Assembly (NCBI GenBank): GCA_016183805.1
Contig: JACPDX010000034.1
Location: forward strand, 1,122-65,121
Length of the DNA stretch: 64,000 nucleotides
Reading direction: 5' to 3'
From: Bacteroidota bacterium
GTDB lineage: Bacteria; Bacteroidota; Bacteroidia; Flavobacteriales_E; Vicingaceae
Numbering within the stretch: position 1 is the first letter of the stretch; each line of letters starts with the position of its first letter. Both the position numbers and the translations under genes were made by a program. A model generated the notes under the pieces. It did not search any database, had not been told where the DNA came from, and saw nothing but the letters and a program-made list of their open reading frames with translations. Below, one piece after another: positions 11,191 to 59,397 of the stretch.

Positions 11191-14100
11191 TTAAAATTCA
11201 AATTTCCGAACCATTTCAAATGGTTTTATTAAATTAAGATTTAAGGTAAACCTAATCTTTTCTACATATTTGAGTTGATTCAAATCGCTTGATAATTTAA
11301 TGGGAAAGTAAATTTCACACATGTTTGGAATAAGAATTAACGAAGCTCCAAATCCATAAGCAATTGGAGAAACTTCATCAACTTCATCTCCTTTGTAATT
11401 TCTTGTGGTATATCCGGTTAAACCGAAATCGGCGTACAAACCTATAAATTTAATAGGGGTATTACTTTTTAAATTGATGGCATTTAACCATTTGTCTGAA
11501 GATGAAACAGTAGTGTAATTTTTAAATCCACCATCCGTAATCATAGCTTGTTGATTCAAATGCCCTTCAGTAGTATTTCTTCCAAGTAAAATATGTTCAT
11601 ACAAATAATCGGAATTTCCATTTAGGTTGTAGTTAAATCTTGAACTAGCGTTGTCGTTGTATAAGAATCGACCAACAAAAAAGCGTAAGTCTAAACCAGT
11701 TCCTTTTTTACGGTAGGCAAATTTGTAATTGGCTTCTAAATTAATTTTAACAAATTCAATAGATTGCTGCACATTTACACTTACTTGGTATGGGTTGATA
11801 GGGTTTTTACTTTTTAACCCAACCTTCAAATTATTCACATAATACCTTTCAAAACGCAAATCGTAATAAACATTTCCTTCGTTATTTCTCTTGTAACTGG
11901 CAACTTCTTCAAAAATATTTACAAATTCATAGCTTAAAAAATATTGTTTAAATTGCCGTTCTCTTCGTTTTCTAAAATCAATGTTTATTTGTGGAGATAA
12001 CTTATAGTACTCCAACGATTGAGTTACAGTGCTATTGGGCTTTTCAAAATTCAAATAACTAAACGATGAAGATTTTGTTCCAATAGCAATGTCTTCAAAA
12101 ATGCCGTTGGGTGTGATGTGGTAAAAGATGTTGGCATAACCGTTTACATTTTTTGAACCAAAAGCATACATTGGAGCCAATACATATTCAAACTTTTTGG
12201 TGGGTAGAGAGGCATTATAGATTGCACCACCCAACATAAAATTATCATTGCTGTTCCAACCACCAATTGGAGTAATAAATAATTGGGTTTTATCAGGGTT
12301 TTCAATACTTCCAAACAATTGAATGCGTAATGGTTCTATCGTTTTAAATAAACCTTTGGCTTTTAAGGTGTTGTTTTTTCTTGATATTTCAGGTATTTCG
12401 AGAGTTGCATCAATCTTATAAAAGTCATAATCGTCCAACTTAAATTTTAGCAATCCTCTATTACCGACAGATTCGTACCACTGTGTATAAATAATGGAAT
12501 CGTTTTTTATTCCGGAAACAGAAAAAGGTCCATTAATTTGACCATTATTATTAATTTTCAATAAAATAGAATCGGTACTTGAAGTGTCTTTTTTAGTTCC
12601 TGTTATTTTATAATCAATTTTACGAGTTGTTTTAATTACACCATCAAAAAACCAACTCAAGTTTTTACCTGTTCCATCTTCAAAAATTTTCCTTAAATCG
12701 TTGGGTTGTGGGTGTTTAAACTGCCATTCGTTATAGTATCGTTGCATACATCTATCGAACAATTCATCACCCAAATAAGCTTTTAAATAATCGAAAACAA
12801 TTGCTGTTTTAGAATAAACAATTCCGCCATAATTCAAAGAAGTATATTCTGCCGATTTTTCTTCAATGGGCTGATCTTGGTTCCTTCTTGCATTTATTAA
12901 ATAAGCGAGTTCGTATTGACTTTTATGAGGGTAATGGGCTAAATCAAAAAATTTTAAAAAATTTCTGGTAGAAGTAGAGTCGGAACTTATTAGTTTTGCA
13001 TCAGGATACTTTGTTTCAATGTAACGATTTTCATTGAATGAGTTTAAGCCCTCATCCATCCATGGGTGATCACGCTCGTTACTTCCTAAAATGCCATAAA
13101 ACCAATTGTGCCCAACCTCATGCATGATGACGGTTTCTAAACCAAAATCATTTCCAGACTCTCCAATTACAGTAATGTTTGGATATTCCATCCCGCCACC
13201 GGCACTCAATGCTCCATCAACAGCAGTTACATGATTGTAAGGATAATCGCCATTCCATAATGAATAATAGTAAGTCGCATCATTAATGTATGCTATACTT
13301 TTTTTCCATAAATGAGCTTCATTATTGGTAAACATTGCCCAAGTAGTAACTTTTCGTTTGGAGTGAGGTAAAGCAACTTCCCCTTTTAAAACATGGTAAC
13401 GTTTGTCGGCAAACCAAGCAAAATCGTGTACATTTTCTTGATGAAAATGTAAGGTTTTTACCGTGTCGTTTGAAGCAGGAAACGCCATATCTGTCGAAAA
13501 ATCAATTATTTTACTGGTTTCCTCAGCCAATTGATTTAACCACGCCAATTCTTTCTCACCGTTTACTAAGTCTCCTGTAGCACCAACCACATAATTTTTT
13601 GGTAATCGAATTTTCACATCAAATGTCCCATATTCCGAATAAAATTCGCCTTGGTCTAAATAGGGCATCTGATTCCATCCATTTTTATCATAAACAGCAG
13701 GCTTTGGATACCATTGTGTTATTTGGTAGGATTGACCCATGTGACCTAATCGGGAAAAAACACCTAGCGGAATCTTTACACTAAAAGGAGTCGAAATTTC
13801 TATAGTTTCACCTGGCAATAGTATTTGAGGTAAAAATACTCGACAAATATCTTCATTTTCTAAGGTATATTCCCATTGAAGTGTATTTCCATTTGAGGTA
13901 AAATTAAGGCCATCAATAAATCCAAGTTTAGAGTCGTGGGCATAATACAATTTGGTATCACCCTCCTCCAGTTTTTGTTTACTTAAAGCAGATTTGTAGT
14001 TTTTATAAGCATTTGGCCACAAGTGAAAATAAATAAATTCAAGTTTGTCTGGAGAATTGTTGGTGTATTCAATCTTTTCTGTTGCATCAAGTTGATGAGA

Positions 14101-16869: not shown

Positions 16870-16877
16870 TAACTTTG
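16870..16877 (+). promoter_or_regulatory. -7 promoter element for small lipoprotein gene
   Basis: TAACTTTG with TTG about 21 nt upstream; ATG lies only 6 nt downstream. Confidence 0.55.
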
Positions 16878-16883
16878 TATGTG

Positions 16884-17138
16884 ATGAGTACAAGTATTAA
16901 AATATCAAATCTAATAAAAGGGTTGTTACTTATGGTAATAACTACTTTTGTATTTGCTTGTTCTAAGTGTGAAGGGCCAACCCCAATGTCTTCATCAAAT
17001 TCATCCAATTCCAAATCTTCGTCTTCAATTATTTCTAACGATAATTTACCTTCAACTGAAAAAACATCGGGGGTAGTTGGGGGTGATGACAAAGAAGATG
17101 ATGACGATAATAGAGGTGGTTTTCCAAAAAGAAAATAA
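16884..17138 (+). CDS. Small Ser-rich/acidic lipoprotein
   Basis: Hydrophobic stretch with lipobox VFA-C, Ser-rich linker, GGDDKEDDDD tail; own promoter. Confidence 0.6.
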   Translation: MSTSIKISNLIKGLLLMVITTFVFACSKCEGPTPMSSSNSSNSKSSSSIISNDNLPSTEKTSGVVGGDDKEDDDDNRGGFPKRK

Positions 17139-17366: not shown

Positions 17367-17399
17367 TTTGGATTAAAAAATATATATTCTATATCTTTG
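17367..17399 (+). promoter_or_regulatory. Primary-sigma promoter of the TonB receptor operon
   Basis: TTTG (17367-17370), 21-nt spacer, TATCTTTG (17392-17399). Confidence 0.7.
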
Positions 17400-17449: not shown

Positions 17450-20400
17450 ATGTTGAAAAGACTAGCTGTTTTTACGTTGTCCATGTTTATCGGATTTGTT
17501 GCTTATGCACAATCAGGGACAATAAAAGGTAAAATGATTGATAAGGCAACAAACGAACCGTTACCTTTCGCCAATATTGTTGTTTTTAAAGGTGGAGCCC
17601 AAGTGGCAGGAACCATGACAGATATGGATGGCAAATACACCATTTCAGCATTATCTCCAGGTACTTATGAAATTCAGGCTTCTTATGTAGGTTATCAACC
17701 GGTAAAAATGTCGGGTGTTGTAGTTAATGATGGAAAAATTACCTTTTCAGATATTAAAGCAGGTCAAGGTATTGACTTGGAGGGTTTTGAATTGTTTGAT
17801 TATGAAGTTCCATTGATTTCTAAGGATCAAACTTCTTCTGGTGGTACTGTTTCAAGAGAAGATATTGCTAAAATGCCAGGGCGTTCTGCTGCATCTATAG
17901 CACAAACTGTAGGTGGAGTAAACGTTAATGAAGATGGTTCATATAACATTAGAGGTTCGAGAACATCGGGTACCGATACTTATATAGATGGTATTCGTGT
18001 TAGGGGTTCAGCTAATTTACCGAATGCTGCCATTGAACAAGTTACTGTTATTACCGGTGGTATGCCTGCTGAATACGGTGATGCTACAGGTGGTATAGTT
18101 AGTATAACAACTCGTGGAGCCTCTAAAGAATGGTTTGGAGGACTAGAATATTTAACTTCAGGCTTTAAATCTGGTAAAAAAGTTGTCGGTTTAGATCAAT
18201 TTGGGTATAACTTGTTAGGTTTTAACTTAGCCGGACCTTTATTTACTAGGAAGGATACTGCTGGTAATAAAACTGATGCTATTGCCGGTTTCTTTATTTC
18301 AGGTGAGTTTAAAAGTGAAGTTGATTCACGACCATCAGCTATAAATAATTATAAAGTGAATGATGAAGTAATGGATGAGTTGAATGCAAATCCCTACATT
18401 AGAAGGCTTGATGATGCCAATAGCATAATAAACAGTGCTTCTTATGTGAAAGCAAGCGATTTAGAAACCACAAGATTCAGACAAAATGTTGGAAGAAAAG
18501 GAATGAATTTGTCTGGTAAAATAGATATTTCTCCTACTAAAAATACGACCATTACTTTAGGAGGAACATTTGATTTTGAGGATAGAAATGCTGAAGTTCG
18601 TAGTACATCAGGAGCATATTCATTATTTAATTCACAAAAAAACCCTCAAGTTATTGATCGTACATGGAGAACTTACGCCAGATTTACACAACGTTTTGAT
18701 AACAATGAAGATAAAGACAATCCTGCTTTAATTAAAAATGCATTTATTTCTTTACAAGCAGATTATTCAAATGTTTTTAATAAAGTTCAAGATGAAGATC
18801 ATCAAGATCAATTAGCAAATTACGGTTACATTGGTAAATTTAAATCTACTAAAGAACAAACGTTTAACATGGGTCAATCTCCAGAAACATTTATTTCGCT
18901 TGATGCAAACGGTAACGCTGTAGATACCATTAGAGGGTATTTAGCAACAAACGAAGTAACCCTTTATGAGTTTACCAGAGATGAGATAAATCCTATTTTA
19001 GCTAACTACACTGATAATTATTATCAAATTTTTGCCAACGATCCTATCGGTAATTGGGAGCGTCCTTCACAGGTTCAAGGTCAAGGAGGACTGTTAAATG
19101 GTGATAGTCCAGGTTCGGTGTATAATTTATGGTCTTCTATGGGTACCCAATACAATGGTTACCAAATGACTAATCAAGATCAATGGAGAATTACTATTGC
19201 TGGTAGTGCCGAAATTAAAGGGCATTCCATTAAAGTTGGATTTCAATATGAACAACGAACAATTAGTTCGTACAATATTTCACCTGTCGGTTTATGGACA
19301 ACAGGAAGAGGTTTAGTAAATACACATTTAGACAATAGAGATTTTACCGAAGGAAATTATAGCGTTGGAACTTCTCCTTTTTATTGGCCGACTTCAGATT
19401 CTACTAGTGCCACAGGTTTTGATACGTTATATCAATATACTTTTCAACCATTTTATGGAGCCAATCAAACTCAATTTGATAAAAATATCAGAGCAAAATT
19501 AGGATTAGCTGAACAAGGGTTAGATTGGATAGATTTTGATTCTTATGGTAATGGTTTATGGTCTGTATCTGATTTTACTGCCGATGATTTATTGAATAAC
19601 TATGGTCAAAACGGTATTAATTATTATGGTTATGATTACACCGGTAAAAAATTATCAGGAAATCCTTCATTAGATGATTTTTTCTACGATACAGATGACA
19701 ATGGAAATTTAAAAAGAGAATTAGGTGCATTTAAACCAATTTATATGGCAGGTTATATTCAGGATAAATTTGCTTTCGAGGATTTAATTTTTAACATTGG
19801 TGTTCGAGTAGATAGATATGATGCCAATCAACCCGTTTTAAAAGACAAATATTCTATGTTTCCTGTGAAAACCGTTTCTGAAGTAGGTAATATTCCTGAT
19901 AAACCGTCGAATATTGGTAATGATTTTGTAGTATATGTTGCCGATGCAGGAGACCCTTCTGTGAATGCTATTGTTGGTTATCGTGATGGCGATACTTGGT
20001 ATGATGCTGATGGTAAAGAATTAACCGATCCATCTGTTCTTCATGCTACCGGCACTCCAAACCCATGGTTGGTTGATGCAAACGATAATTCGGTAATAAA
20101 AGATTTAAGCCCTGCTTCTTTTAAAGATTATGTGCCTCAAATTAATGTATCTCCTCGTATTGCGTTTTCTTTCCCAATATCTGATGAAGCCTTGTTTTTT
20201 GCACACTACGATGTGTTAACTCAACGACCTTCATCAAACAGTAGTTTGCAATTGATAGATTATTTGTTGATACAAAATAATACCAATAGAATCAATAACC
20301 CTGATTTAAAGGCAGAAAGAACCATCGATTATGAATTAGGATTTCAGCAAAAATTGAATAACTATTCATCATTAAAAATTGCAGCTTTTTATCGTGAACA

Positions 20401-21208
20401 AAAAGATATGATTCAAGTAGTTAGAGTAACAGGTGCTTATCCTGAAAATTATTTGTCCTACGGTAATCAAGATTTTGGTACAGTTAAAGGTATGACCTTT
20501 TCTTATGATTTAAGAAGAAAAGGTAATTTTTCGATGAGAGCATCTTATACGTTGCAGTTTGCTGATGGAACAGGTTCCAGCTCGACAACATCGCTAAATT
20601 TAGTTTCTAGTGGTAACAGTAATCTAAAAACATTAATGCCTTTGTCTTTCGATCAACGTCATGTGATTGTATTAGCTTCAGATTATAGATACGGTGCCGG
20701 AAAAGATTATACAGGCCCTGTACTTTTTGGTAAAGAAATCCTAGCAAATACTGGTGCCAACATTATTTTTAGAACAGCATCGGGTGAACCTTATACCAAA
20801 ACATCAAGAGTTGTGAATAGTTCGGTAATATCTGGAGCATTTAACAGCCCAATGGTTGGTTCATTTAATACTTCTCGGTTGCCTTGGACAACTACTGTGG
20901 ATTTAAAAGTGGATAAAAATATTGATTTAAAATGGGGTAAAGGTGAAGGAGAAGAAAGAACTAAAGCGTACTTAAATATATATTTCCAAATTTTGAATGT
21001 ATTAAACACTCAAAATATATTAGATGTGTATTCTGCTACAGGAAATGCTGATGACGATGGGTTTTTGGCTGCTGCCGAATGGCAAACATTAATTTCAGCC
21101 AATGCTGATGAACAAGCTTTTAGAGATTTATATCAGGCAAAAATGGCAGATCCAGCGAATTATGCTTTACCTCGAAGAATCAGATTAGGATTACAGTTAA
21201 ATTTTTAA
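17450..21208 (+). CDS. TonB-dependent receptor with N-terminal carboxypeptidase-regulatory-like domain
   Basis: Signal peptide; GTIKGKMID...PLPFANIV N-domain; plug IRGSR...YIDG...IEQVTVITGGMPAEYGDATGGIVSITT; LKAERTIDYELG; C-terminal PRRIRLGLQLNF. Confidence 0.92.
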   Translation: MLKRLAVFTLSMFIGFVAYAQSGTIKGKMIDKATNEPLPFANIVVFKGGAQVAGTMTDMDGKYTISALSPGTYEIQASYVGYQPVKMSGVVVNDGKITFSDIKAGQGIDLEGFELFDYEVPLISKDQTSSGGTVSREDIAKMPGRSAASIAQTVGGVNVNEDGSYNIRGSRTSGTDTYIDGIRVRGSANLPNAAIEQVTVITGGMPAEYGDATGGIVSITTRGASKEWFGGLEYLTSGFKSGKKVVGLDQFGYNLLGFNLAGPLFTRKDTAGNKTDAIAGFFISGEFKSEVDSRPSAINNYKVNDEVMDELNANPYIRRLDDANSIINSASYVKASDLETTRFRQNVGRKGMNLSGKIDISPTKNTTITLGGTFDFEDRNAEVRSTSGAYSLFNSQKNPQVIDRTWRTYARFTQRFDNNEDKDNPALIKNAFISLQADYSNVFNKVQDEDHQDQLANYGYIGKFKSTKEQTFNMGQSPETFISLDANGNAVDTIRGYLATNEVTLYEFTRDEINPILANYTDNYYQIFANDPIGNWERPSQVQGQGGLLNGDSPGSVYNLWSSMGTQYNGYQMTNQDQWRITIAGSAEIKGHSIKVGFQYEQRTISSYNISPVGLWTTGRGLVNTHLDNRDFTEGNYSVGTSPFYWPTSDSTSATGFDTLYQYTFQPFYGANQTQFDKNIRAKLGLAEQGLDWIDFDSYGNGLWSVSDFTADDLLNNYGQNGINYYGYDYTGKKLSGNPSLDDFFYDTDDNGNLKRELGAFKPIYMAGYIQDKFAFEDLIFNIGVRVDRYDANQPVLKDKYSMFPVKTVSEVGNIPDKPSNIGNDFVVYVADAGDPSVNAIVGYRDGDTWYDADGKELTDPSVLHATGTPNPWLVDANDNSVIKDLSPASFKDYVPQINVSPRIAFSFPISDEALFFAHYDVLTQRPSSNSSLQLIDYLLIQNNTNRINNPDLKAERTIDYELGFQQKLNNYSSLKIAAFYREQKDMIQVVRVTGAYPENYLSYGNQDFGTVKGMTFSYDLRRKGNFSMRASYTLQFADGTGSSSTTSLNLVSSGNSNLKTLMPLSFDQRHVIVLASDYRYGAGKDYTGPVLFGKEILANTGANIIFRTASGEPYTKTSRVVNSSVISGAFNSPMVGSFNTSRLPWTTTVDLKVDKNIDLKWGKGEGEERTKAYLNIYFQILNVLNTQNILDVYSATGNADDDGFLAAAEWQTLISANADEQAFRDLYQAKMADPANYALPRRIRLGLQLNF

Positions 21209-21238
21209 AAGAATTACCTACTTAAAAGATAGATAGAT

Positions 21239-24200
21239 ATGAAAAACCAACGTAATAATACTACCAAACTTGTTTTAGCATGTGTTGCATTACTTGCTTT
21301 TGGTTCGCTTCATGCACGTATGGCGAATAATAATACCAATGGAAATGGAAATAAAGGTGGTGGCAACAATCCAACACCTACGGCTGGTTGTTCTCCGGCA
21401 GTTGCATTGGCATCGCTTGAATTTAACAATGTTAGAGCCAGAATCGATGCTACCGGAGGTAGTATGTTTCAAGACAGAGCTAACAGTATTGCTGCTTATA
21501 ATGTTCCTAAACAGAATTCAGAAAACGATCCCTTATATACAGCTTTGTATGCCGGTTCATTGTGGATTGGTGGTGTTGATGCTGCAGGACAATTAAAAGT
21601 AGCTGCCGTAACTTTTAGAAGTGGTGGTGCTAATGATTTTTGGCCCGGTCCTTTGGATAATACTGCAGAAGTTGATGCAAACACTTGCGAAGTTTTTGAC
21701 CAATTTTTTGGAATTTCTCGTCCTATGGTTAACGAATTTGTAGCTTGGTTTGCCGACAAAGATGCTTACCCTGATTACCAAATACCTGCTGCCATTTTAA
21801 ATTATCCGGCTAGAGGAAATACGGTAAAAAAGAAACAATATGCATATTATGTGGCTGATCAATTAGCTCCTTTTGTTGATGTTGATGGAGATACTTATTA
21901 TGACCCTGCTCAAGGCGATTATCCTTGGTACGATTTAAAAGGAACTAACGATTGTAGAACAAACAGAGAAGTCCCTTTGTTTGGAGACACCACCTTATGG
22001 TTTGTATTTAATGACAAAGGAAATACACATTCCGAATCTCAAGGTTTATCCATTGGTATGGAAATTAGAGGTCAAGCCTTTGCTTTTGCTACCAATGACG
22101 AAATTAACAACATGACTTTTTACAATTATGTATTGATTAACCGATCGAATTTCACCTTTCAAAATACCTATTTTGGGCAATGGATTGATGCGGATTTAGG
22201 TAATTCTGGTGATGATTTTGTGGGTTGTGATGCGTCCAGAGGTTTAGGATATTGTTACAATGGTGATGCTAATGATGAAGATGCGAATGGTGTTACCGGT
22301 TATGGCTCTACACCACCTTATATTGGTGTTGATTTTTTTGAAGGTCCTTACATGGATAATGATGGAATTGATAACCCATTAACAACAGATATACCAACGG
22401 CAATAGCCCAAAATGGGATTCCTTATGCCGGTTTAGGTATTGGTTATGGTGATGGTATTATTGATAATGAACGTTACGGAATGCGTAAATTTGTTTATTA
22501 TAATAATGGTGGTCCTGCCGTTAGTGCAGACCCTAATAATGCAGCTGAATATTATAATTATTTACGTGGGATATGGCTTGCTGGCGGTGGCAACATGACA
22601 TGGGGAGGTGATGGTATTCCTGCAAATAATAATAGTAATATTCAAGCAGACTTAATGTTTCCGGGAGAATCCGACCCGTTGAATTGGAGTACAAAAGGTG
22701 AGCCTGTTCCTCCAGGTACTGAAGATTGGACTGAGTCTAGTGTACCTAATAATCCTGCTGATAGGCGTTTTATTCAATCGGCAGGTCCGTTTGAGTTGAC
22801 ACCTGGTGCGGTTAATAACATTACTGTTGGAGTGGTTTTTGCTAGAGCTTTAAGTGGGAATAACCTTTCTTCATTAACCTACCTACAGGTAGCAGATGAT
22901 AAAGCACAAGCTTTGTTCGACAATTGTTTTAGAATTTTAGAAGGCCCCAATGCACCTGATGTTACCATTCAGGAATTAGAAAATGAATTGATTTTATTTT
23001 TATCGAATAATAACCCCATTTCTAACAATTACAAAGAGGGAGCCAACCTTAAAGACCCCTTTATTTCTATTCCGGATACCTTGGATGGTGTGTATCAAGG
23101 CACTGATGAAGATAAGGATACGTTGAAATATTATAAGTTTCAAGGTTATCAGGTTTATCAAATTAAAAACACCAATGTTTCTGTTAGTCAATTAACTGAC
23201 CCTAGTTTATCCCGTTTAATTGCTCAGGTCGATATCAACGATAACATTGGACAAATTGTTAATTACACTTACGATGTATCAATCAATGCAAATGTTCCAA
23301 AAGAAATGGTGAATGGGAAAAACGCAGGAATTAATCATTCTTTTAGAATAACAGAGGATGCTTTTTCTACCAGTACCAATAAAAAATTGGTGAATCATAA
23401 AACCTATCATTTTATTGCTATTGCTTATGCGTATAACAATTGGAAAACTATAGATCCTCAATATTTTGCTGCCGGTGGCCAGTTAAAACCATATTTGGCA
23501 AGTAGAACAAGTTCTACAGGAGGGGGTATTCGATCATATTCAGGAATACCTCACAGTCCAAAACCAACCAATGGGGGTACTATTTTGAACTCAGATTATG
23601 GCGATATGCCTGAAATTACCAGAATTGAAGGTGCCGGTAATGGAGGATTGGTTTTAGAATTAACCTCAGCTTCAGAAGTTCAAATTGTTTCAGCTAACTT
23701 TATGGATTATCCGGTTTACCAAGCTGGTTATGGTCCACTTGAAGTAAAAGTAATTGACCCGTTGAATGTTAAAAAAGGAACCTATTATCTACAATTTTTA
23801 GATACAACTACAGCTCCTGTAGGTGTTAATCCGTTAGATGATGCTTATTGGAGAATGATAAATGGCTCGGATACCACTTATTCCGAGAGAAACATTGGTT
23901 TTAGAAATGAACAATTGTTTAGTGATTTAGGTTTTTCAGTTACTTTAAGCCAAACTACCTCTCCTGGTGTTGAAACTAGTGTGGGTGAAAACAATGGATT
24001 TATTTCTACTACTATTTCTTATGCTAATCCTTTAAAACCATGGCTATCAGGTGTTTTTGATGCTGATGCTGCTAATGATTTGAATTGGATAAGATCTGGT
24101 ATACAAAGTTTTTATCAGGCACCAGTTGGTGGAGACCCTGGTTTCCCAAAAGATTATGATGATGCTGGAGATTATATCGTAGCAGATTCTATAACCATTT

Positions 24201-25438
24201 TTTATGATCCGGAACAAAAGTTTGAAAATATGTTGAACGGTACTTGGGCTCCGTATCGATTGGTATCTACAGTGGTGATAGGAAATAACAAACCTATTTC
24301 TAGGATAAAAAATGCTCCTGGGATTGTTGATCATTTCGTTTCTGGGGCTACATCAAACTATTTTACGACAGTTACACATGCTTCATCTAAATTAGCCAAT
24401 TCAGAATCAGTTGATATTGTTTTTACCAATGATCAAAGTAAATGGACTCGTTGTGTAGTTTTTGAGACAGGTAGCGATAAAAATGCAGTAGAAGGAAATG
24501 TGGCCTATTTTTCAAAACGATTTGCCGCCAATGTGGATAAAAATGGCAACCCTGATAGTACATTAAATCCATTAGGAGCTACAGGAAATGGTATGAGTTG
24601 GTTTCCTGGTTATGCCATTAATGTGGAAACCGGTGAACGTTTAAACATGGCATTTGGTGAAGACAGTAAATACATCAATTTTAACGGTAGAGACATGAAA
24701 TGGAATCCAACTGCTGATTATTATAAATGGGATACTATTAATATGGTGTTAGACACGGTTCTTGGTGCAAGGCATTATACCTACGTATTTAATACCAGAT
24801 ATGATGAATGTAAAAAGTTAGACAGTTTGTTGTCTTTATCTAGACCATCGCCTATTAGTAGTCCTTCTACTGCTCAAGGAAAAACTCAAAAATACATTGC
24901 AGAATCAGCGATGTGGGTAGGTTTTCCTGTGGTTGCTGGTGGTCAATCGTTACTATCAAATGATGCGAGAATAAAAATTAGAGTTACAACACCTTATAAA
25001 AATTTAACTACAGCAAACACTGCTAATCCAACAACTTTTGGTAACAGTCAGCGACCCATGTACATGTTTACGATGGATGCGTTTGCTGCTGAAACTGGTG
25101 ATGCCACGGCTGCAAAAGAAGTATTGGATATGATTAAGGCGGTACCTAATCCTTATTATGCATATTCGGAATACGAAAATGATAAATTCGACAACAGAAT
25201 TAAAATAACAAATTTACCGGAGAACTGTACCATTTCAATTTACAACGTTGGTGGTACCTTAATGAGAAGATATGTTAAAGGAGATTCCAAAACGAGTTTA
25301 GATTGGGATTTAAAAAATCACGCAGGTATTCCTGTCGCCGGAGGAGTTTATCTTATCCATATTGAAATACCGGATGTAGGCGAAACGGTTATCAAATGGT
25401 TTGGAGTTGCCAGACCAACAGATTTGAATGGATTGTAA
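21239..25438 (+). CDS. Large T9SS cargo protein with type-A C-terminal sorting domain
   Basis: Signal peptide, N/G-rich linker, Dx[DN]xD motifs, CTD VPNPYY...ISIYNVGGTLMR...WDLKNHAGIPVAGGVYLIHI. Confidence 0.82.
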   Translation: MKNQRNNTTKLVLACVALLAFGSLHARMANNNTNGNGNKGGGNNPTPTAGCSPAVALASLEFNNVRARIDATGGSMFQDRANSIAAYNVPKQNSENDPLYTALYAGSLWIGGVDAAGQLKVAAVTFRSGGANDFWPGPLDNTAEVDANTCEVFDQFFGISRPMVNEFVAWFADKDAYPDYQIPAAILNYPARGNTVKKKQYAYYVADQLAPFVDVDGDTYYDPAQGDYPWYDLKGTNDCRTNREVPLFGDTTLWFVFNDKGNTHSESQGLSIGMEIRGQAFAFATNDEINNMTFYNYVLINRSNFTFQNTYFGQWIDADLGNSGDDFVGCDASRGLGYCYNGDANDEDANGVTGYGSTPPYIGVDFFEGPYMDNDGIDNPLTTDIPTAIAQNGIPYAGLGIGYGDGIIDNERYGMRKFVYYNNGGPAVSADPNNAAEYYNYLRGIWLAGGGNMTWGGDGIPANNNSNIQADLMFPGESDPLNWSTKGEPVPPGTEDWTESSVPNNPADRRFIQSAGPFELTPGAVNNITVGVVFARALSGNNLSSLTYLQVADDKAQALFDNCFRILEGPNAPDVTIQELENELILFLSNNNPISNNYKEGANLKDPFISIPDTLDGVYQGTDEDKDTLKYYKFQGYQVYQIKNTNVSVSQLTDPSLSRLIAQVDINDNIGQIVNYTYDVSINANVPKEMVNGKNAGINHSFRITEDAFSTSTNKKLVNHKTYHFIAIAYAYNNWKTIDPQYFAAGGQLKPYLASRTSSTGGGIRSYSGIPHSPKPTNGGTILNSDYGDMPEITRIEGAGNGGLVLELTSASEVQIVSANFMDYPVYQAGYGPLEVKVIDPLNVKKGTYYLQFLDTTTAPVGVNPLDDAYWRMINGSDTTYSERNIGFRNEQLFSDLGFSVTLSQTTSPGVETSVGENNGFISTTISYANPLKPWLSGVFDADAANDLNWIRSGIQSFYQAPVGGDPGFPKDYDDAGDYIVADSITIFYDPEQKFENMLNGTWAPYRLVSTVVIGNNKPISRIKNAPGIVDHFVSGATSNYFTTVTHASSKLANSESVDIVFTNDQSKWTRCVVFETGSDKNAVEGNVAYFSKRFAANVDKNGNPDSTLNPLGATGNGMSWFPGYAINVETGERLNMAFGEDSKYINFNGRDMKWNPTADYYKWDTINMVLDTVLGARHYTYVFNTRYDECKKLDSLLSLSRPSPISSPSTAQGKTQKYIAESAMWVGFPVVAGGQSLLSNDARIKIRVTTPYKNLTTANTANPTTFGNSQRPMYMFTMDAFAAETGDATAAKEVLDMIKAVPNPYYAYSEYENDKFDNRIKITNLPENCTISIYNVGGTLMRRYVKGDSKTSLDWDLKNHAGIPVAGGVYLIHIEIPDVGETVIKWFGVARPTDLNGL

Positions 25439-25441
25439 AAA

Positions 25442-25497
25442 GTGACAAGGGACTGGGGACAAGAAACTAGAAACCAGTAGCTAAAAACTAAAAACTT
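25442..25497 (+). repeat. Degenerate heptamer tandem array
   Basis: GTGACAA GGGACTG GGGACAA GAAACTA GAAACCA GTAGCTA AAAACTA AAAACTT. Confidence 0.6.
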
Positions 25498-25512
25498 AAA
25501 AAAGGTTTGAAT

Positions 25513-26554
25513 ATGAAGAATATTAGAATTGTAATAACGCTATTTTTTGCAGGATTAACTGCCACGACGTCAGTTTTTGCCGGAAATGAAGACAGAGCTG
25601 GTGAGGCAGGAGCTTCACAATTACTAATTAATCCATGGGTTAGAAGTGTGGGTTTTGGAGGTGCAAATACTGCATCAGCTATTGGCTTAGAAGCTATGAA
25701 TTTGAATATTGCCGGAATGGCTTTTACCAAAAAAACAGAAGTAATGTTTTCCAATAAAACTTGGTTAAAAGGAAGTAATACTTTCGTTAATTCATTTGGT
25801 TTAACTCAAAAAGTTAGTGAAACAGGTGTTTTAGGTGTTTCTATTATGTCTATGGATTTTGGCGACTTAGATGTTACCACAGTTGACTTACCGGAAGGTG
25901 ACGGAAGTACTTTTTCACCGAGTTATTTGAATTTTGATATAGCTTATGCTAAGAAGTTTTCTAACAGTATTTCGGGTGGTCTTGTTGTTAAAGTGATTAC
26001 TGAATCTATTTCAAATATTAGCAGTACAGGTGTTGCCTTTAATGCCGGTGTTAAATACGTTACCGGCGAAAACGACCGTATTAAATTTGGAATTTCCTTA
26101 AATAATGTTGGACCATCTATGCAGTCAACAGGTGAAGGATTGTCTTTTACAAATGTTGACATAAATACAGGTATTACATCAACTCAGCAACGTAAATCGG
26201 CAACTTATCAGTTACCTTCATTATTAAACATTGGTGCTACTTACGATTTTTATGTTGCTGCTGTTAAAGATTCTGCTTCTAATCAGATTAAAGCTAATCA
26301 TAGAATTACTCTTGCTGGTAACTTTACTGCAAATTCGTTTACTAAAGACCAATACCGACTTGGTTTAGAATATGGGTTTAGAAATATGTTTATGGTCAGA
26401 GCAGGTTATGTACTGGAGAGTACAACATGGTTTGATTCAAATTTAAGAACTTCTGCATATACCGGACCTGCTTTTGGAGGTTCATTAATTGCACCTCTTG
26501 GAAAATGAACGTTTTTCCGGAACACACAGTATTGGTATCCGTTTAGATTTATAA
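25513..26554 (+). pseudogene. PorV-family outer-membrane barrel, frameshifted near 26506
   Basis: GNEDRAGEAGASQLLINPWVRSVGFGGA and GLEAMNLNIAG are PorV-like; TGA at 26506-26508, while the family-like terminal strand FSGTHSIGIRLDL* continues in the +1 frame to 26554. Confidence 0.75.
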
Positions 26555-26579
26555 TAGAATTTATATAAATAAATTATAA

Positions 26580-26609
26580 AAGAGAACCCGGCGACGGATT
26601 CTCTTTTTT
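26580..26609 (+). terminator. Intrinsic terminator ending the receptor-cargo-PorV operon
   Basis: AGAGAACCCG-GCGA-CGGATTCTCT plus T run. Confidence 0.75.
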
Positions 26610-26630: not shown

Positions 26631-27104
26631 ATGGCACAAATTAATTACTATACCGAAGATGGTCTAAAAAAATTGAATGAAGAGTTAGATCAATTAAAAA
26701 ATGTTGAAAGGGCTAGTGTTTCTGCACAAATTGCTGAAGCAAGAGACAAAGGAGATTTATCAGAAAATGCTGAATATGATGCAGCAAAAGAAGCACAAGG
26801 ACTTTTAGAATTAAAAATATCTAAATTGGAAGCCATTGTTGCTAATGCACGGGTAATTGATGAATCACAATTAGATACTTCAAAAGCCTTGATATTTTCT
26901 AAAGTGAAGATTAAAAATATTGCCAATAAAATGGTGATGGAATATACCTTGGTTTCTGAAAAAGAAGCTAATTTAAAAGAAAAAAGAATTTCTGTCGATT
27001 CGCCTATTGGAAATAGTTTGTTGGGTAAATCGGTTGGTGATGTGGTTGAAGTTAAAGTTCCTACAGGGAAAGTTAATTTCGAAATTTTAGAAATTTCCAG
27101 ATAA
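26631..27104 (+). CDS. greA: Transcription elongation factor GreA
   Basis: EARDKGDLSENAEYDAAKE, ISVDSPIG. Confidence 0.97.
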   Translation: MAQINYYTEDGLKKLNEELDQLKNVERASVSAQIAEARDKGDLSENAEYDAAKEAQGLLELKISKLEAIVANARVIDESQLDTSKALIFSKVKIKNIANKMVMEYTLVSEKEANLKEKRISVDSPIGNSLLGKSVGDVVEVKVPTGKVNFEILEISR

Positions 27105-27487
27105 TGCAACCTTCTATTTTTACTAAAATTATTACTAAAGAAATTCCTGCCTACATCATTGATGAAAGTGATGATTTTATTGCTTTTTTAGATGTCTTTC
27201 CTTTGGCTAAAGGTCATGTTTTAGTGGTTCCTAAAAAACAAGTAGATTATATTTTTGATTTAGAACCGGCAATTTATTCCGGTTTATGGTTATTTGCTAA
27301 CACCATTGCAAAAAGATTGCAAAAAGCAATTCCTTGTAAACGTGTTGGAATTGCTGTTATTGGACTAGAAGTACCTCACGCACATGTTCATTTAATCCCG
27401 CTTCAATCTGTTGAGGACATTAATTTTACTAGATCCAAGTTAACATTAACCAAAGAAGAGTTTGAGGAGCTGACGATGATTATTTAG
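27104..27487 (+). CDS. HIT-family hydrolase
   Basis: SIFTKII, PLAKGHVLVVPK, histidine triad VPHAHVHLIP. Confidence 0.93.
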   Translation: MQPSIFTKIITKEIPAYIIDESDDFIAFLDVFPLAKGHVLVVPKKQVDYIFDLEPAIYSGLWLFANTIAKRLQKAIPCKRVGIAVIGLEVPHAHVHLIPLQSVEDINFTRSKLTLTKEEFEELTMII

Positions 27488-42910: not shown

Positions 42911-43909
42911 TTAAAATTTAGCACATGGAGCAAAAAACTTTGCTTTTCTCTTTTTTTTCTTTTTTGTAGCTATCTCGTAAATTAAAGATATCTCATGTGA
43001 TCCATATGAGTTTGCTGCTAATCTAGAAATAGTTGCGTCATAACTATATCCAATACTCATGTTCAAATCGATAAACGAATAGCCTAAAATTATTGAAACT
43101 GCATCGTTGTTAAGAACACCTTCATAAGACTTTATTAAAGGGAGCCCTCTATACCAAACACCAAAAACAAAAGGTTCTTGAGTGTAATATAAACCTAAAT
43201 CAAGTTGGTCGAATTTATTTTGTGCTTTATAATGAAAAGCTACATTAAAGTATTTAGCGGTATTTCTTTTTTCTCCATCGGCTAAGGTGTATTTATATCC
43301 ACCATGAGCAGAAAATTTCAAGTATAGAGGGCTCTCATTGTTGGTTAACGATTGGTTGGGTTGATTGATATGGTTAAAAGCAAAACCTCCCCAAAATTTC
43401 TCATTGTACAATAAAATACCAGTACCAAGGTCTAGATAAGACTGATTTTCTAAAGCAAATGATTCGGTTGTGACTCCATCGGTATAAAGTTGGTCGTTAA
43501 AAATTAAGTCAGAATAATCTAAACCAGTTCGGATGTAATTAAATTTTAAACCCGGTTGAATCCAAACTTTTTCTTTTAATTGAAATCGGTATGCGTATAA
43601 TGCTCCAATTTGTGTTGTGGTTAAAGGCGATGAGCCAGCTCGTTCTTGCCCAACTAATAATCCTATTCCACTATTAAATTCTGCAAGGTTGTAATCATAC
43701 GAAAACAGCATGTTGTTAAAATGACCAGGAATTCCAGCCCACTGATTTCGATAATTTGCGATAAAACGATGTTCAATAGTTGAACCAGTAAATCCAGGAT
43801 TCAAATATAAAGGAGCAGCATTAAATTGAGTGAATTGCATGTCTTGTGCAAATCCAAAAATGGAAAAGCAAATAAGAATTAATGACAGTATTAACCTTAG
43901 TTGAAGCAA
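42911..43909 (-). CDS. PorP/SprF-family T9SS outer-membrane protein
   Basis: QDMQFTQF..APLYLNPGFTG, YRNQWAGIP, IGYSYD, GSHEISL. Confidence 0.92.
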   Translation of the reverse strand: MLQLRLILSLILICFSIFGFAQDMQFTQFNAAPLYLNPGFTGSTIEHRFIANYRNQWAGIPGHFNNMLFSYDYNLAEFNSGIGLLVGQERAGSSPLTTTQIGALYAYRFQLKEKVWIQPGLKFNYIRTGLDYSDLIFNDQLYTDGVTTESFALENQSYLDLGTGILLYNEKFWGGFAFNHINQPNQSLTNNESPLYLKFSAHGGYKYTLADGEKRNTAKYFNVAFHYKAQNKFDQLDLGLYYTQEPFVFGVWYRGLPLIKSYEGVLNNDAVSIILGYSFIDLNMSIGYSYDATISRLAANSYGSHEISLIYEIATKKKKKRKAKFFAPCAKF

Positions 43910-45445
43910 TTATTTTTTTTGTAATTTAAAAATGATTGGGTTACTACTTTTAATGTCGTAAACTAAATCTTCTGTTTTTGGATGATAGCCTTCTGCTTGA
44001 ATTACATAATTGTATGTTTTCTCAGGTTCAACAAGCATGATAAATTTTCCACTACCTTCTTTTGATTTATAAATCCCTTGAATTTTTGCTGTTTCGTTTT
44101 CAATTAAAGTAATTTTTGCAGATATTGGGGATGAATCACTCTCGCTGTAAACTTCCCCTTTTATAACTTGAAGTTGCTCAAACTCATCTTTTAAAACCAC
44201 TTTATAAATGTCTTGACCACCATAACCGCCTTGTTGTGCAGAAGAATAATAACCAATTTTACCATCCGCTGCTAATACAAAGAAAATATCATCGGTTACC
44301 GTATTTATTGGATATCGAAGGTTATCCGGATTTGTCCACACACCATTCTCGTCAATCTTTGTTTTAAAAATGTCATATCCTCCCATGTTTTGATGCCCGG
44401 TAGAACTGAAATAAAGTGTTTTTCCATCAGAATGAATAAAAGGAGCATCTTCATCCTGTTCAGTATTTATTGTTGGCCCAAGATTTTGAGCTTTTCCCCA
44501 TGTTCCGTTTGGAAGTCTTTCTACCTTATAAATATCTTTTCCTCCAAAACCACCTTCTCGATTGCTTGAAAAATAGATAATTTTGTCGTTTGCAGTAATA
44601 GATGCACTAGTTTCAACAAAACCCGAATTTATGTTGTCAGGAAGTTTAATTGGAGTTTCCCATTCATCTAAACCCATTCTGCTTTCGTATAAACTTCCCG
44701 AGTATAAATCGGGGTTAGTTCTAAAAATAAATAATAATTGTCCATCGGGTGATAATCCAGCACAAGCATCATTGGTTTCAGTATTTATTCCTGCTTTCAT
44801 TTGGACCGGTTTTTCCCATGAATTGCCGGATTTTTTTGAATAATAAATGTCTTCAAAAAATCTACCATTTGGGTCGAGCTTATTACCTGTACTTTCAGGT
44901 CTTCGTGAGGTAAAATACATAGCTCCTTCATCAGCAGATATTAACGGAACATATTCATCATATTTGGAGTTAATAATTGCACCAACATTTTGAATAGCAA
45001 CATTTCTAGGTTTTGAAATAACTTCTTCAGCATAAATCGACTTATTAATTAATCTGTTTATTTCGTCATTTGTTAAATCTTTTTTACCATTAATAATTTT
45101 GTAACCGTTATAAAAGTTGATGGCTTTTTTAAATTTTTGCTGAATATGAGCTATTGCCGCTTTATATCGGAACAATTCTAGACTTACGCCACTTGTGGTC
45201 TTTAAAAAATAATCTTCAGCGTTTTGATATTTTTTTAATTCATAATAACAAACGCCCAGTTTAAAGGCTGTTGTAGTATTGGTCGAATCCAAGCTATATG
45301 CTTTTAGGAACAATTGTTCGGCTCCAAAATAATCCTGAACATTAAACTTGTCTTCGGCAGATTTTAGAATTTTTTTAATATCTACGTCTTGGCTAAACGC
45401 ACAAAAACAAATTGATATTAAACTAACTAATAGTAGTTTTTTCAT
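43910..45445 (-). CDS. TPR + PD40 repeat protein (PorE-like architecture without OmpA domain)
   Basis: N-terminal TPRs; PD40 repeats (INSKYDEYVP, YFSSNREGGFGGKDIY, GYDIF, GGQDIY); ends after a CarboxypepD-reg-like domain. Confidence 0.82.
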   Translation of the reverse strand: MKKLLLVSLISICFCAFSQDVDIKKILKSAEDKFNVQDYFGAEQLFLKAYSLDSTNTTTAFKLGVCYYELKKYQNAEDYFLKTTSGVSLELFRYKAAIAHIQQKFKKAINFYNGYKIINGKKDLTNDEINRLINKSIYAEEVISKPRNVAIQNVGAIINSKYDEYVPLISADEGAMYFTSRRPESTGNKLDPNGRFFEDIYYSKKSGNSWEKPVQMKAGINTETNDACAGLSPDGQLLFIFRTNPDLYSGSLYESRMGLDEWETPIKLPDNINSGFVETSASITANDKIIYFSSNREGGFGGKDIYKVERLPNGTWGKAQNLGPTINTEQDEDAPFIHSDGKTLYFSSTGHQNMGGYDIFKTKIDENGVWTNPDNLRYPINTVTDDIFFVLAADGKIGYYSSAQQGGYGGQDIYKVVLKDEFEQLQVIKGEVYSESDSSPISAKITLIENETAKIQGIYKSKEGSGKFIMLVEPEKTYNYVIQAEGYHPKTEDLVYDIKSSNPIIFKLQKK

Positions 45446-45450
45446 TTTTT

Positions 45451-48400
45451 TTATCTTAATAATGTAATATCGCCTACAAATGTTTCAGATCTACCATCTA
45501 CAAATGTAACTTGAATTTTATATACATACACATCTTGTTGTACGAGTTTTTCACGATAATAACCATCCCAACCAATTTTAATGTCGTTACTCACAAAAAG
45601 TAATTCTCCCCACTTATTAAAAACATTCAATTCATAGGTTTCAGCACCAAATATGATTGGGTGAAAAACATCGTTATCAAGATTTCCTGCAACTATAATT
45701 CCGCCTGTACTACCGCCAGAATTTGGAGTAAATGCGTTTGGTATTTTTATAATTCCTTCTGCTTTTGCTTCAACTGCCGAAACTATTCTAAAAGTATCTT
45801 TACAGTTATTTATTGATGTGGCAATTAATGAAATATCAAAAAATCCGGGCTGTGTATAAAAATGTTGTGGGTTTAAATCGGACGAAGTAGTTCCATCACC
45901 AAAATCCCATGCATAAGTTGATGCAAATTCACTTAGATTGTAAAGGGAAATTGCCTGACTAGGAATAGTTACCACCGAAGGGGTTACTGTGAAAAATGCA
46001 CTTGGAATTTGATAAACTTCAATAATTTGTGTTTGTATTTGAGTGTCAACTCCACCATCGCCAGTTGCTGTTAATGTTACAGAATAAATACCGGGATTAT
46101 AATAGGTATAATTAGGATTAACTTGAGTCGAAAAATCTCCATTTCCAAAATTCCAAGTGTATTGATTGGCGTAAAGCGAATTATTAACAAACTGAACCCG
46201 TAAAGGACGACAACCTGTTGCTGATCCATTAAAACTTGCTATGGGAACAGGTGGGATAATTTGTATAGTTTGAAAAGCTGTATCAGAACAATAAGTACCA
46301 CTTACAATAACACTTATATCAAAATCACCCCAAGTTGCATAAATGTGATTTGGTGGAGAAGGTAAAATGGATGTTGTGGTATCTCCATAATTCCAATTGT
46401 ATTGCCATGTTCCAAAAGAGGTGGTGTTGGATATGGATATAGCAGTACTTGGAAAAGTCTGACTAGAAGGAGAGGCAATAAATGAAGCAACAGGCGTAGT
46501 GTGTACAGTAATGTTTTGATATAATGTATCTCTACATCCATAAAAAGATTCGGCAATTAAACTCGCTGCATAAGTAATGTCAGATGGGGAAGTGTTAGTA
46601 TATACATGGCTTGGACTAGGGGCATTATCTAATGCTGAACCATCGCCGAAATTCCAAATAAACGTATTTGCTCCTATGGAAGTATTTACAAAATTAATTG
46701 TTAACGGACTACAGCCTGAAGAATCTGAAATAAAATTAGCGACAATTTCGGGATAAACAGTAATGGTTTGAGTCGCCGTATCTAAGCAACCATTGGTTGT
46801 TTCCGAAATGAGCGTAATGGTGTAGTTTTGTACAACTCCGGTATTGTTAACATAGGTATAATTAAAATTTGGAGCTAACGTATCGAAAACAGTTCCGTTA
46901 CCTAAATTCCAGTGGAAAATATTACCATTTGATGAGTTGTTGCTTATTGTTATTGGAAGTGGTTGGCAACCAACAATAGTATTTGTGTTAAATAATGCAA
47001 TAGTTGGTGGATACACCAAAATCTGTTGAAAAACAGTATCAAAACAACCATAAACAGATTCAATAATTAATCTCACATTAAAATATTGATTTACAACTCC
47101 TGTATTAATAAATTGATGTGTTGGGTTTGGTGAATTATTTATTGGTGAACCATCACCAAAATCCCAATAATGATTGACTGCACCAATTGATAAACTCGTA
47201 AATGTTGTTGTAAATGGAGTACATCCAAAAGTATCTGCCTGCATTAATGCTGTAACATCCGGATAAATAGTTATTAGCTGGGTTGCGGTATCTTTACAGC
47301 CTTGATTGGTTTCTGCTATTAATGTGGTGTTTATATTTTGTAACATACCACTGGTATTGGTGTAAATATGAGTAAAACTAGAACTAAGTGTATCAAAAGT
47401 TGTTCCATCACCTAAATTCCAATGATAGAAAGAACCTCCGGTTGAATTATTGGTAAAAGTTATAGGAAAAGGATGACAACCATTGGTATCATTTACGGTA
47501 TATTGTGCCAAAGGGTTTGGAAAAACTAAAACCTGACCATAAGTGGTGTCTGTACATCCAAAAGGTGATGTTGCAGATAAGGTAACATTATATATTAAAT
47601 TGTTGGTTAAATTGTTGGTAAAAGTATGACTTGGAGTAGGTCCGGAACCGATAGTACCATCACCAAAATCCCAGTTGTAGACAACCGCTCCAATAACTGA
47701 AGGAAAAGTAACAACTAAAGGGCTACAACCTGAATCTGGGCTAATACTAAAACCAAATTGCGGTTCAGGATAAACAGTAATGGTTTTTGTTATTGTATCT
47801 AAACAGCCGTTTGAGCTAGTAGCGGTAAGAAGTATTGTGTAATTATTGATGAACAATGTTAGGTTTTGATAAATATGAGTGGGGTTATTACTGTTATTAA
47901 TTGGAGAACCATCACCAAAATCCCATGTTTGAGAAACATGCCCGGTGGAAGTGTTGGTAAAATTGACCACCAAAGGGGCACAATCCAACAAGGCATTATC
48001 AGTAAATGAAGCTATTGGGTTTGGAAAAACAGTGATAGGATTTATAGAAGTATCGGTGCATCCAAAAGTAGTTTGAGCAATTAATTGAACTTGATAAGTG
48101 GTATCTGTTCCAAAAGTGTTGGTAAAAAGATGAGAAGGGTTTGAATTGGTATCTAAGGGAGAGCCATCACCAAAATTCCAAGAAAAATTAACGGCATTTA
48201 TTGATGAAGTATTAGTGAAATTAACCAATAAATCAGCACAACCATTGTTTGTGTCGGTAGTAAAATTTGCAACAGGAATGTTTTCAACGTTAATTTGAAC
48301 GGTATCGGTTCCCGAACAGAAGGCTGTATTCACTATCAAAATCATGTCGTAGAAACCGGGCAGACTATAAATATGATTTGGATTTTGCTGAGTGCTTGTT

Positions 48401-59380: not shown

Positions 59381-59388
59381 TACATTTG
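59381..59388 (+). promoter_or_regulatory. -7 promoter element of the two-component pair
   Basis: TACATTTG, 9 nt upstream of ATG 59398. Confidence 0.6.
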
Positions 59389-59397
59389 AATCTACAA

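Follow-up and report, generated by a model that had tools for sequence, protein, structure and literature searches.

The 64,000-nucleotide (nt) stretch of contig JACPDX010000034.1 (assembly GCA_016183805.1, Bacteroidota), hereafter the window, carries three co-oriented genes encoding a TonB-dependent transporter (TBDT), a large protein with a C-terminal domain (CTD) typical for a type IX secretion system (T9SS), referred to as the cargo, and an outer-membrane barrel of the PorV/PorQ family (Table 1). The tight spacing of the three genes, described in an earlier prediction for this DNA (the original prediction), is real, with gaps of 30 nt between transporter and cargo and 74 nt between cargo and barrel. 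The triad, which occurs as a unit in numerous environmental Bacteroidota, probably builds a cell-surface complex that has so far been unstudied.

Table 1. Position of the triad and of other features in the window (ORF, open reading frame; aa, amino acids)
Feature	Position	Strand	Remarks
TonB-dependent transporter gene	17450-21208	+	ORF, 1252 aa
Cargo gene	21239-25438	+	ORF, 1399 aa
Cargo CTD (~aa 1300-1399), predicted T9SS CTD-like beta-sandwich	25136-25435	+	appears closest to the PorZ CTD
PorV/PorQ-family barrel gene	25513-26554 (true extent)	+	ORF in the window 25507/25513-26508, 333/331 aa as written
Candidate Bacteroidota-type promoter	17367-17399	+	TTTG at 17367-17370, TATCTTTG at 17392-17399; ~50 nt 5' of the transporter ATG
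Terminator-like hairpin followed by a T-run	26578-26607	+	between the barrel gene and greA; -14 kcal/mol, z = -3.1
Canonical type A protein, 825 aa	27734-30211	+	CTD 55-59 bits, no other recognisable domain
PKD-rich type B CTD protein, 1513 aa	45451-49992	-	CHU_C tail; part of a type B module

A scan of one genome per species yielded at least 594 confirmed stretches, and the best 80 loci, containing 82 cargo copies, were analysed. They belong to the Flavobacteriales (labelled Vicingaceae, Crocinitomicaceae, Cryomorphaceae, Salibacteraceae and Parvicellaceae) and to the Bacteroidales, including Lentimicrobiaceae. The transporter gene is located directly 5' and the PorV-like barrel gene directly 3' of the cargo gene in 60 of the 82 copies. 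Apart from copies missing one or both partners, which are considered below, the rest touch contig ends. The order is also kept in four further relatives, and locus L086, at 34-40% identity, again reads transporter, cargo, PorV-like barrel, greA. The linkage of the three genes is beyond chance, and the synteny that the original prediction had implied for other genomes is found across both orders as well as in L086.

The transporter comprises a signal peptide and, according to Pfam, a CarboxypepD_reg domain (aa 24-97), a plug (aa 126-216; PF07715, 3.6e-12) and a TonB_dep_Rec_b-barrel. The AlphaFold2 model of aa 100-1252 (pLDDT 82, pTM 0.80) displays a disordered linker, the plug with a pLDDT of ~70-85, and a large barrel with long extracellular insertions, for which we counted ~22-23 strands in the DSSP string of the model. 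The extracellular loops contain ~350 extra aa, and the protein ends in LQLNF, with a terminal Phe. Searches of the PDB sequences with the single transporter, cargo or barrel protein gave nothing useful; with the transporter model, however, Foldseek returned classical TBDTs with E-values of 1e-25 to 1e-20 and target-normalized TM-scores (TMt) of 0.6-0.8, among them PirA, Cir, PhuR, PfeA, FptA, FusA, BtuB, FhuA, XusA, TbpA and HasR. The top 50 matches included no SusC/RagA structure. Neither was the SusC/RagA family, the signature of which we take to be TIGR04056, found among the NCBIfam matches with E<=0.01. Hence, the transporter is a classical TBDT and not of the SusC type. Pairing with SusD is restricted to SusC-type transporters. 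The description of the module as SusD-less in the original prediction is therefore true but does not point to an anomaly, and its proposal that the cargo replaces SusD had to be dropped, as no SusD is expected next to a transporter resembling PirA, Cir, PfeA, BtuB and XusA.

In total, 1793 homologs of the transporter were found, with 48-92% identity among the 120 listed; the closest named species among the listed homologs is Vicingus serpentipes, with a transporter 73% identical to that of the window. Within the disordered linker, a hydrophobic stretch preceding the plug is conserved, reading (E)FEVIEYEVPLI in the family and FELFDYEVPLI in the window, which could be the TonB box. Conservation of the extra loops (0.56-0.69) is close to that of the barrel (0.60-0.73), which would agree with a conserved interface for a protein or ligand, but is no proof of one. 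The N-terminal CarboxypepD_reg domain and the large size are features that the transporter shares with Oar-type proteins. It may be imagined that the direction of the TonB-type barrel is outward, similar to Oar with PopC, and that it exports or releases something connected to the cargo. A TBDT required for protein secretion is indeed known from Oar and PopC in Myxococcus (PMC6434023). Yet, the cargo already has a T9SS signal and T9SS genes are present, no Oar-like barrel family occurs among the Pfam matches with E<=0.01, and the fold matches of the transporter are importers; we consider an outward function highly improbable.

The cargo is composed of a Sec signal peptide, a low-complexity N/G/P/T linker, a mostly beta-stranded passenger of ~1250 aa, and the C-terminal T9SS-type domain. 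At normal thresholds, the passenger matches no family in Pfam and NCBIfam. More than 5132 homologs were found, with 45-83% identity over the full length among the 120 listed. A search of all 50%-identity representatives yielded 7139 clusters with E<=1e-3, 1910 of them with E<=1e-30, with representatives mostly 1300-1500 aa long. With ~7,000 clusters at 50% identity in hundreds of species-level genomes, the family is highly conserved and wholly unannotated, and a first functional clue to it would annotate thousands of genes.

The passenger (aa 51-1250) was modelled by AlphaFold2 with a pLDDT of 78 and a pTM of 0.65 as a nearly all-beta protein. Foldseek searches against the PDB and BFVD found no structural analogue of the whole passenger. 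Only weak partial matches were obtained, with query-normalized TM-scores (TMq) of at most 0.17, to N-terminal beta-sandwich domains of GH94/GH116/GH65, to FN3 domains and to the phage tail-tip protein J. A role as a glycoside hydrolase or phosphorylase was considered and rejected, as the model is almost free of helices and no hydrolase family matches. Numerous Asp, Asn, Gly, Trp and Cys residues are invariant, which suggests calcium sites and disulfides.

The presence of a T9SS-type CTD in the cargo, claimed in the original prediction, was corroborated by profile matches, while its classification as type A holds only in part. The last 109 aa gave an NCBIfam local match to the PorZ CTD (1.8e-8). 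Compared with the PorZ equivalog, the cargo scored 33.3 bits (cutoff 260) and aligned to model positions 668-751 of 757 only, i.e. to the CTD. As nothing else aligns, the passengers of PorZ and the cargo are unrelated. The type A model TIGR04183 gave 19.9 bits, under its cutoff of 23, and 16.1-25.9 bits for the cargo homologs. PF18962 (Por_Secre_tail; cutoff 27) did not match the window cargo and gave weak matches in 13 of 34 homologs, with a best E-value of 0.0064; no type B or CHU_C CTD was detected with Pfam or NCBIfam. When the PDB sequences were searched with the cargo family profile, the sole match was PorZ (5m11_A), which was weak (E 0.42). Judged by these sequence comparisons, the CTD appears borderline for type A and closer to the PorZ CTD. 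It is also the most conserved block of the cargo, with a mean majority-residue frequency of 0.77 versus 0.56-0.73 for the passenger blocks, which is more in keeping with an interaction domain that is retained than with a signal to be discarded.

For the barrel, the original prediction had expected a grouping with PorV rather than FadL, and a grouping with PorV/PorQ was confirmed. The truncated window copy scored 118.5 bits and the full-length homolog of V. serpentipes 133 bits with the NCBIfam PorV/PorQ family model NF033709 (cutoff 90). The sole match of the barrel family profile (26 members) among all PDB sequences was PorV of F. johnsoniae (6h3i_F, E 2.5e-6), with no FadL among the matches, and TIGR03519 (PorP/SprF) did not match the barrel. 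The scores with the equivalog models of PorV (NF033710, cutoff 250; 56.7 bits for the window, 63 for V. serpentipes) and PorQ (NF033711, cutoff 220; 58.5 and 63 bits) stayed well below the cutoffs, and the barrel is likewise far under the PorV2 equivalog cutoff. At the level of profile scores, the barrel is classed as a PorV/PorQ family member that is an orthologue of neither PorV nor PorQ.

The end of the barrel gene at position 26554, as originally predicted, is the true stop, but it is not the end of the ORF in the window as written. This ORF stops at 26508, and 26554 is a stop in another frame, which encodes ...ERFSGTHSIGIRLDL, the conserved last strand of the homologs. Compared to the closest full-length relative, the window lacks 41 nt after 26506, which shifts the frame and removes the last two barrel strands. 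Our first reading, a pseudogene with a 41-nt deletion and a frameshift, was rejected after this site had been compared with Logan contigs from four public metagenome runs of groundwater, which stem from the same and from related samples. Contigs of two related groundwater runs contain 40 extra letters exactly at the gap site. In the two runs containing 95-96% of the words of the window, the contigs break at 26487-26506 at ~5x depth, and the loose contig ends read the missing barrel letters. Since public contigs carry these letters, the 41-nt gap is an assembly artefact, a mis-join, and the real barrel gene is intact. The intact protein has ~360 aa and ends in ...GTHSIGIRLDL; relatives have 360-363 aa. 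The V. serpentipes barrel shares 78% identity with its counterpart in L004, which is closely related to the window.

In L086, the barrel (11354-13138, 594 aa) is fused to a C-terminal OmpA-like peptidoglycan-binding domain. Its relation to the window family was detected by hhalign with a probability of 100% over 344 columns. To our knowledge, no OmpA fusion of a PorV/PorQ-family barrel has been described. Such a fusion is more easily reconciled with a fixed anchor than with a shuttle that moves about.

These data also bear on the idea of the cargo as an ordinary type A substrate of the T9SS, with the barrel being an extra shuttle or an unrelated channel and the shared operon not reflecting a complex. 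Several homologs score near or above the TIGR04183 cutoff, the weak Por_Secre_tail matches point in the same direction, NCBI names the homologs 'T9SS type A sorting domain-containing protein', and cargo copies without a barrel keep the same CTD. On the other hand, the most conserved block of the protein is a CTD with a better match to that of PorZ, which is uncleaved, than to the type A model, and the canonical type A protein encoded as the third gene past the triad, after greA and an ORF annotated as HIT-family in relatives, reaches 55-59 bits versus 19.9 for the cargo. Moreover, the barrel gene stays next to the cargo gene in different orders and even at 34-40% identity, and a barrel fused to OmpA would be unable to shuttle. 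We therefore regard an ordinary type A substrate as unlikely.

A published precedent supports the idea, already contained in the original prediction, that a cognate barrel might hold the cargo. PorZ and PorU are T9SS substrates with uncleaved CTDs. PorQ, a barrel of the PorV family, picks up PorZ at the translocon and keeps it at the cell surface, independent of PorU and PorV (PMC10947112), and a review proposed that cognate PorV-like barrels shield CTDs from cleavage (PMC10202324). By analogy, we propose that the triad encodes a conserved outer-membrane module, in which the cargo is exported by the T9SS, its CTD is kept on its own barrel, and it serves as a partner beside the transporter. We give this arrangement a little less than an even chance. 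All three proteins have Sec signal peptides, and the C-termini of transporter and barrel are typical of outer-membrane proteins, so that both are probably inserted into the outer membrane. The 1399-aa cargo would cross this membrane via the T9SS, as its CTD and the T9SS genes in the window suggest. Following the examples of PorQ-PorZ and PorV-PorU, its PorZ-like CTD would not be cut and would stay bound to the cognate barrel, which would act first as a collector at the translocon and then as a membrane anchor. Considering the gene linkage, the anchored cargo may lie beside or over the transporter and act as a capture, processing or lid partner for the imported substrate, a role comparable to that of the BtuG, XusB, TbpB and SusD lipoproteins for other transporters. 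Export, CTD retention, transporter contact and substrate import are all inferred steps.

The triad would share with PorQ-PorZ and PorV-PorU of P. gingivalis that a T9SS protein is held by a PorV/PorQ-family barrel through an uncleaved CTD, with retention being predicted here. As described, the cargo CTD best matches that of PorZ and the barrel passes the family model. The triad differs in a passenger unrelated to PorZ, in a barrel that is neither PorQ nor PorV by the equivalog cutoffs, and in being encoded together with a TBDT. A cargo gene adjoining its own barrel gene for secretion or anchoring is also seen in pairs of type B proteins with PorP/SprF barrels (SprB-SprF; PG1035-PorP-PorE), and the OmpA fusion in L086 recalls the link of PorE to peptidoglycan. 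The cargo, however, has no type B or CHU_C match, and its barrel belongs to the PorV/PorQ family and not to PorP/SprF. From the side of the transporter, the triad resembles SusCD, RagAB, BtuB-BtuG, XusA-XusB, TbpA-TbpB and HasR-HasA, where a TBDT gene adjoins the gene of a large surface protein that potentially captures the ligand or caps the barrel; BtuB, XusA, TbpA and HasR are among the fold matches of the transporter model. The partners in these systems are lipoproteins or free hemophores, whereas delivery by the T9SS and attachment to a separate barrel are predicted for the triad partner. Compared with SusCD in particular, the transporter is not of the SusC type, there is no SusD, and the partner fold is without known analogue. 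The triad would thus combine two known logics, a CTD on a cognate barrel (PorQ-PorZ) and a TBDT with a surface partner (BtuBG, XusAB, TbpAB, SusCD). This combination was not found in the literature searched.

A link between TonB-type barrels and the T9SS is known from another side. PorF (PG0534) of P. gingivalis has been described as a TonB-dependent-receptor-like T9SS component, and a homologous TonB-dependent receptor of Cytophaga hutchinsonii (CHU_1606) co-purified with PorV (PMC8564354). Here, as perhaps in the triad, a TonB-type barrel is linked functionally or physically to PorV and the T9SS. Compared by description only, PorF-type proteins have ~90 kDa versus 1252 aa of the triad transporter, and no association of the PorF gene with genes for a cargo and a PorV paralog is known. 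Cargo and barrel could accordingly form a surface-anchored adhesin, coat or enzyme, with the TonB-type barrel as a platform or PorF-like T9SS accessory that does not import anything. The all-beta passenger with its FN3/Ig-like and beta-sandwich pieces, as found in adhesins and phage tail tips, would be in line with such a function, as would the PorF precedent, the cargo copies without an adjoining transporter gene, and the position of the module among housekeeping genes (lpxK, greA) with no signature of nutrient regulation. However, the transporter keeps a conserved plug and a linker with a candidate TonB box, which points to TonB-driven transport, and a conservation of 45-83% over 1400 aa is far above that of typical adhesins. 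A surface protein of this kind without import appears rather unlikely to us. A relation to the recently described Bacteroidota accessory barrels of the beta-barrel assembly machinery (BamG, FadL-like) was also considered and discarded, as nothing was found relating the triad to them.

Several observations weigh against the proposed module of transporter, cargo and barrel. Three of the 82 cargo copies (L042, L043, L079) have a transporter but no adjoining barrel gene, and at least eight have neither partner within flanks of ~6 kb, which indicates that the cargo can be encoded apart from both. Duplicated cargo genes stand in tandem or nearby in L088, L064 and L010, partly as partnerless tandem copies. 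Furthermore, greA follows directly 3' in 56 of the 60 triads and in L086, and is linked almost as tightly as the triad itself, so that conserved adjacency need not mean shared function. Some cargo homologs exceed the TIGR04183 cutoff, with 25.9 and 24.8 bits, so that ordinary cleavage by PorU is conceivable. No clue to the substrate was obtained, as no enzyme or catalytic family was recognisable in the cargo with Pfam or NCBIfam, no STN domain in the transporter or sigma/anti-sigma pair at the locus was found with Pfam, and an Rfam scan of the region revealed no riboswitch, leader or other element. A search for public RNA runs with this sequence, intended to check co-transcription, listed none. 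The terms 'dedicated' and 'self-contained' used in the original prediction are hence not strictly valid, given the few barrel-less pairs and the many genomes with partnerless extra cargo copies.

The partnerless copies do not form an old, separate subfamily with another CTD, an explanation that was rejected: they are dispersed over the cargo tree, where they stand as recent duplicates, and have the same CTD. The cargo of L071 and the triad copy L036, both from one metagenome-assembled genome, are sisters, as are the two copies of L064. The cargo family expands by local duplication. In L088 (7001-15403), a cargo gene for 1381 aa is followed by one for 1415 aa, with no transporter or barrel gene adjoining.

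If the proposed module is correct, transport complexes of the outer membrane can include T9SS cargo as a permanent subunit, and paralogs of the PorV/PorQ family would be cargo-specific anchors instead of spare shuttles. Both the range of functions known for the T9SS and that of architectures known for TonB-dependent transporters of Bacteroidota would be widened. The triad might even constitute a new TonB uptake machine, with a non-lipoprotein partner, namely a giant T9SS protein of new fold whose PorZ-like CTD is retained on its own barrel; we put this forward as a tentative possibility. It would represent a third route of anchoring T9SS cargo, beside attachment to anionic lipopolysaccharide (A-LPS) and type B/PorP anchoring, and would join the T9SS and TonB-dependent import in a widespread, near-housekeeping complex of environmental Bacteroidota, with the barrel tied to peptidoglycan by an OmpA domain in some lineages. 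The module is compact, with a clear candidate promoter region, and the cultured V. serpentipes, which has the transporter and barrel genes, makes the model testable.

The upstream neighbours of the triad are on the opposite strand and were identified by synteny with annotated relatives as the genes of an M1 peptidase, PRK, PNP_UDP_1 and lpxK; downstream, greA and a HIT gene were assigned in the same way. As stated in the original prediction, no SusD, hydrolase or sensor gene adjoins the triad, nor does a sigma/anti-sigma pair; the neighbours are housekeeping genes. The proposal of one promoter and one terminator was substantiated in part. TTTG and TATCTTTG fit what we take to be the -33 and -7 elements of Bacteroidota. 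They are conserved in position in close relatives, being identical in L003 and reading TATCTTTA in L004 and L001, and the triad is followed by a terminator-like hairpin. The motif TAnnTTTG by itself, however, is not enriched in the window, with 81 matches versus 117 expected, and is absent from both intergenic gaps of the triad. A single transcript across the three genes is plausible from these signals. In the region 26631-27487, the triad is followed by greA, behind which relatives with listed genes usually have the HIT-family gene; this very deep adjacency of greA to the barrel gene exists even though the hairpin lies between them in the window.

A small ORF of 84 aa is located at 16884-17138 (+). 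Its signal resembles that of a lipoprotein (..VFAC S), its middle is rich in Ser, and its tail, VVGGDDKEDDDDNRGGFPKRK, is acidic and conserved; the motif TAACTTTG lies 5' of it at 16870-16877. Conservation of the ORF was seen in L003 and L004, whereas L001 does not show it. It was rejected as a fourth member of the module, since it is kept in the closest relatives only.

The window also contains a complete type B T9SS module at 42911-49992 (-), consisting of a cargo, a PorE-like protein and a PorP/SprF-family barrel. The PorE-like protein has 511 aa and lacks the OmpA end of the PorE model, and the barrel scores 239 bits. This module is a textbook case of a cargo with its cognate barrel and a useful internal comparator.

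Some loci differ in their surroundings. L042 and L062 are both on contig PACT01000037.1, ~44 kb apart and in opposite orientation. In L042, transporter and cargo are found without a barrel, whereas L062 has cargo, barrel and greA but lacks a transporter. Their cargo copies are sisters and almost identical at the C-terminus, so that the arrangement resembles an inversion caused by recombination of the two cargo paralogs, or else an assembly error. In L047 (2022-5736), a partnerless cargo gene is directly 3' of genes for a Reg_prop/Y_Y_Y histidine kinase and a LytTR response regulator. A similar Reg_prop/Y_Y_Y kinase is encoded in the window at 59386-62400, far from the triad, and there may be a regulatory link between kinases of this type and extra cargo copies. 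In L030, L054 and L062, the cargo is not preceded by a transporter gene but by an ORF of ~1030-1110 aa. In L054, this ORF encodes a UvrD/PD-(D/E)XK helicase-nuclease, and those of L030 and L062 were judged alike by eye from the C-terminal sequence only. Duplicated cargo genes may accordingly have a second site at which they insert repeatedly.

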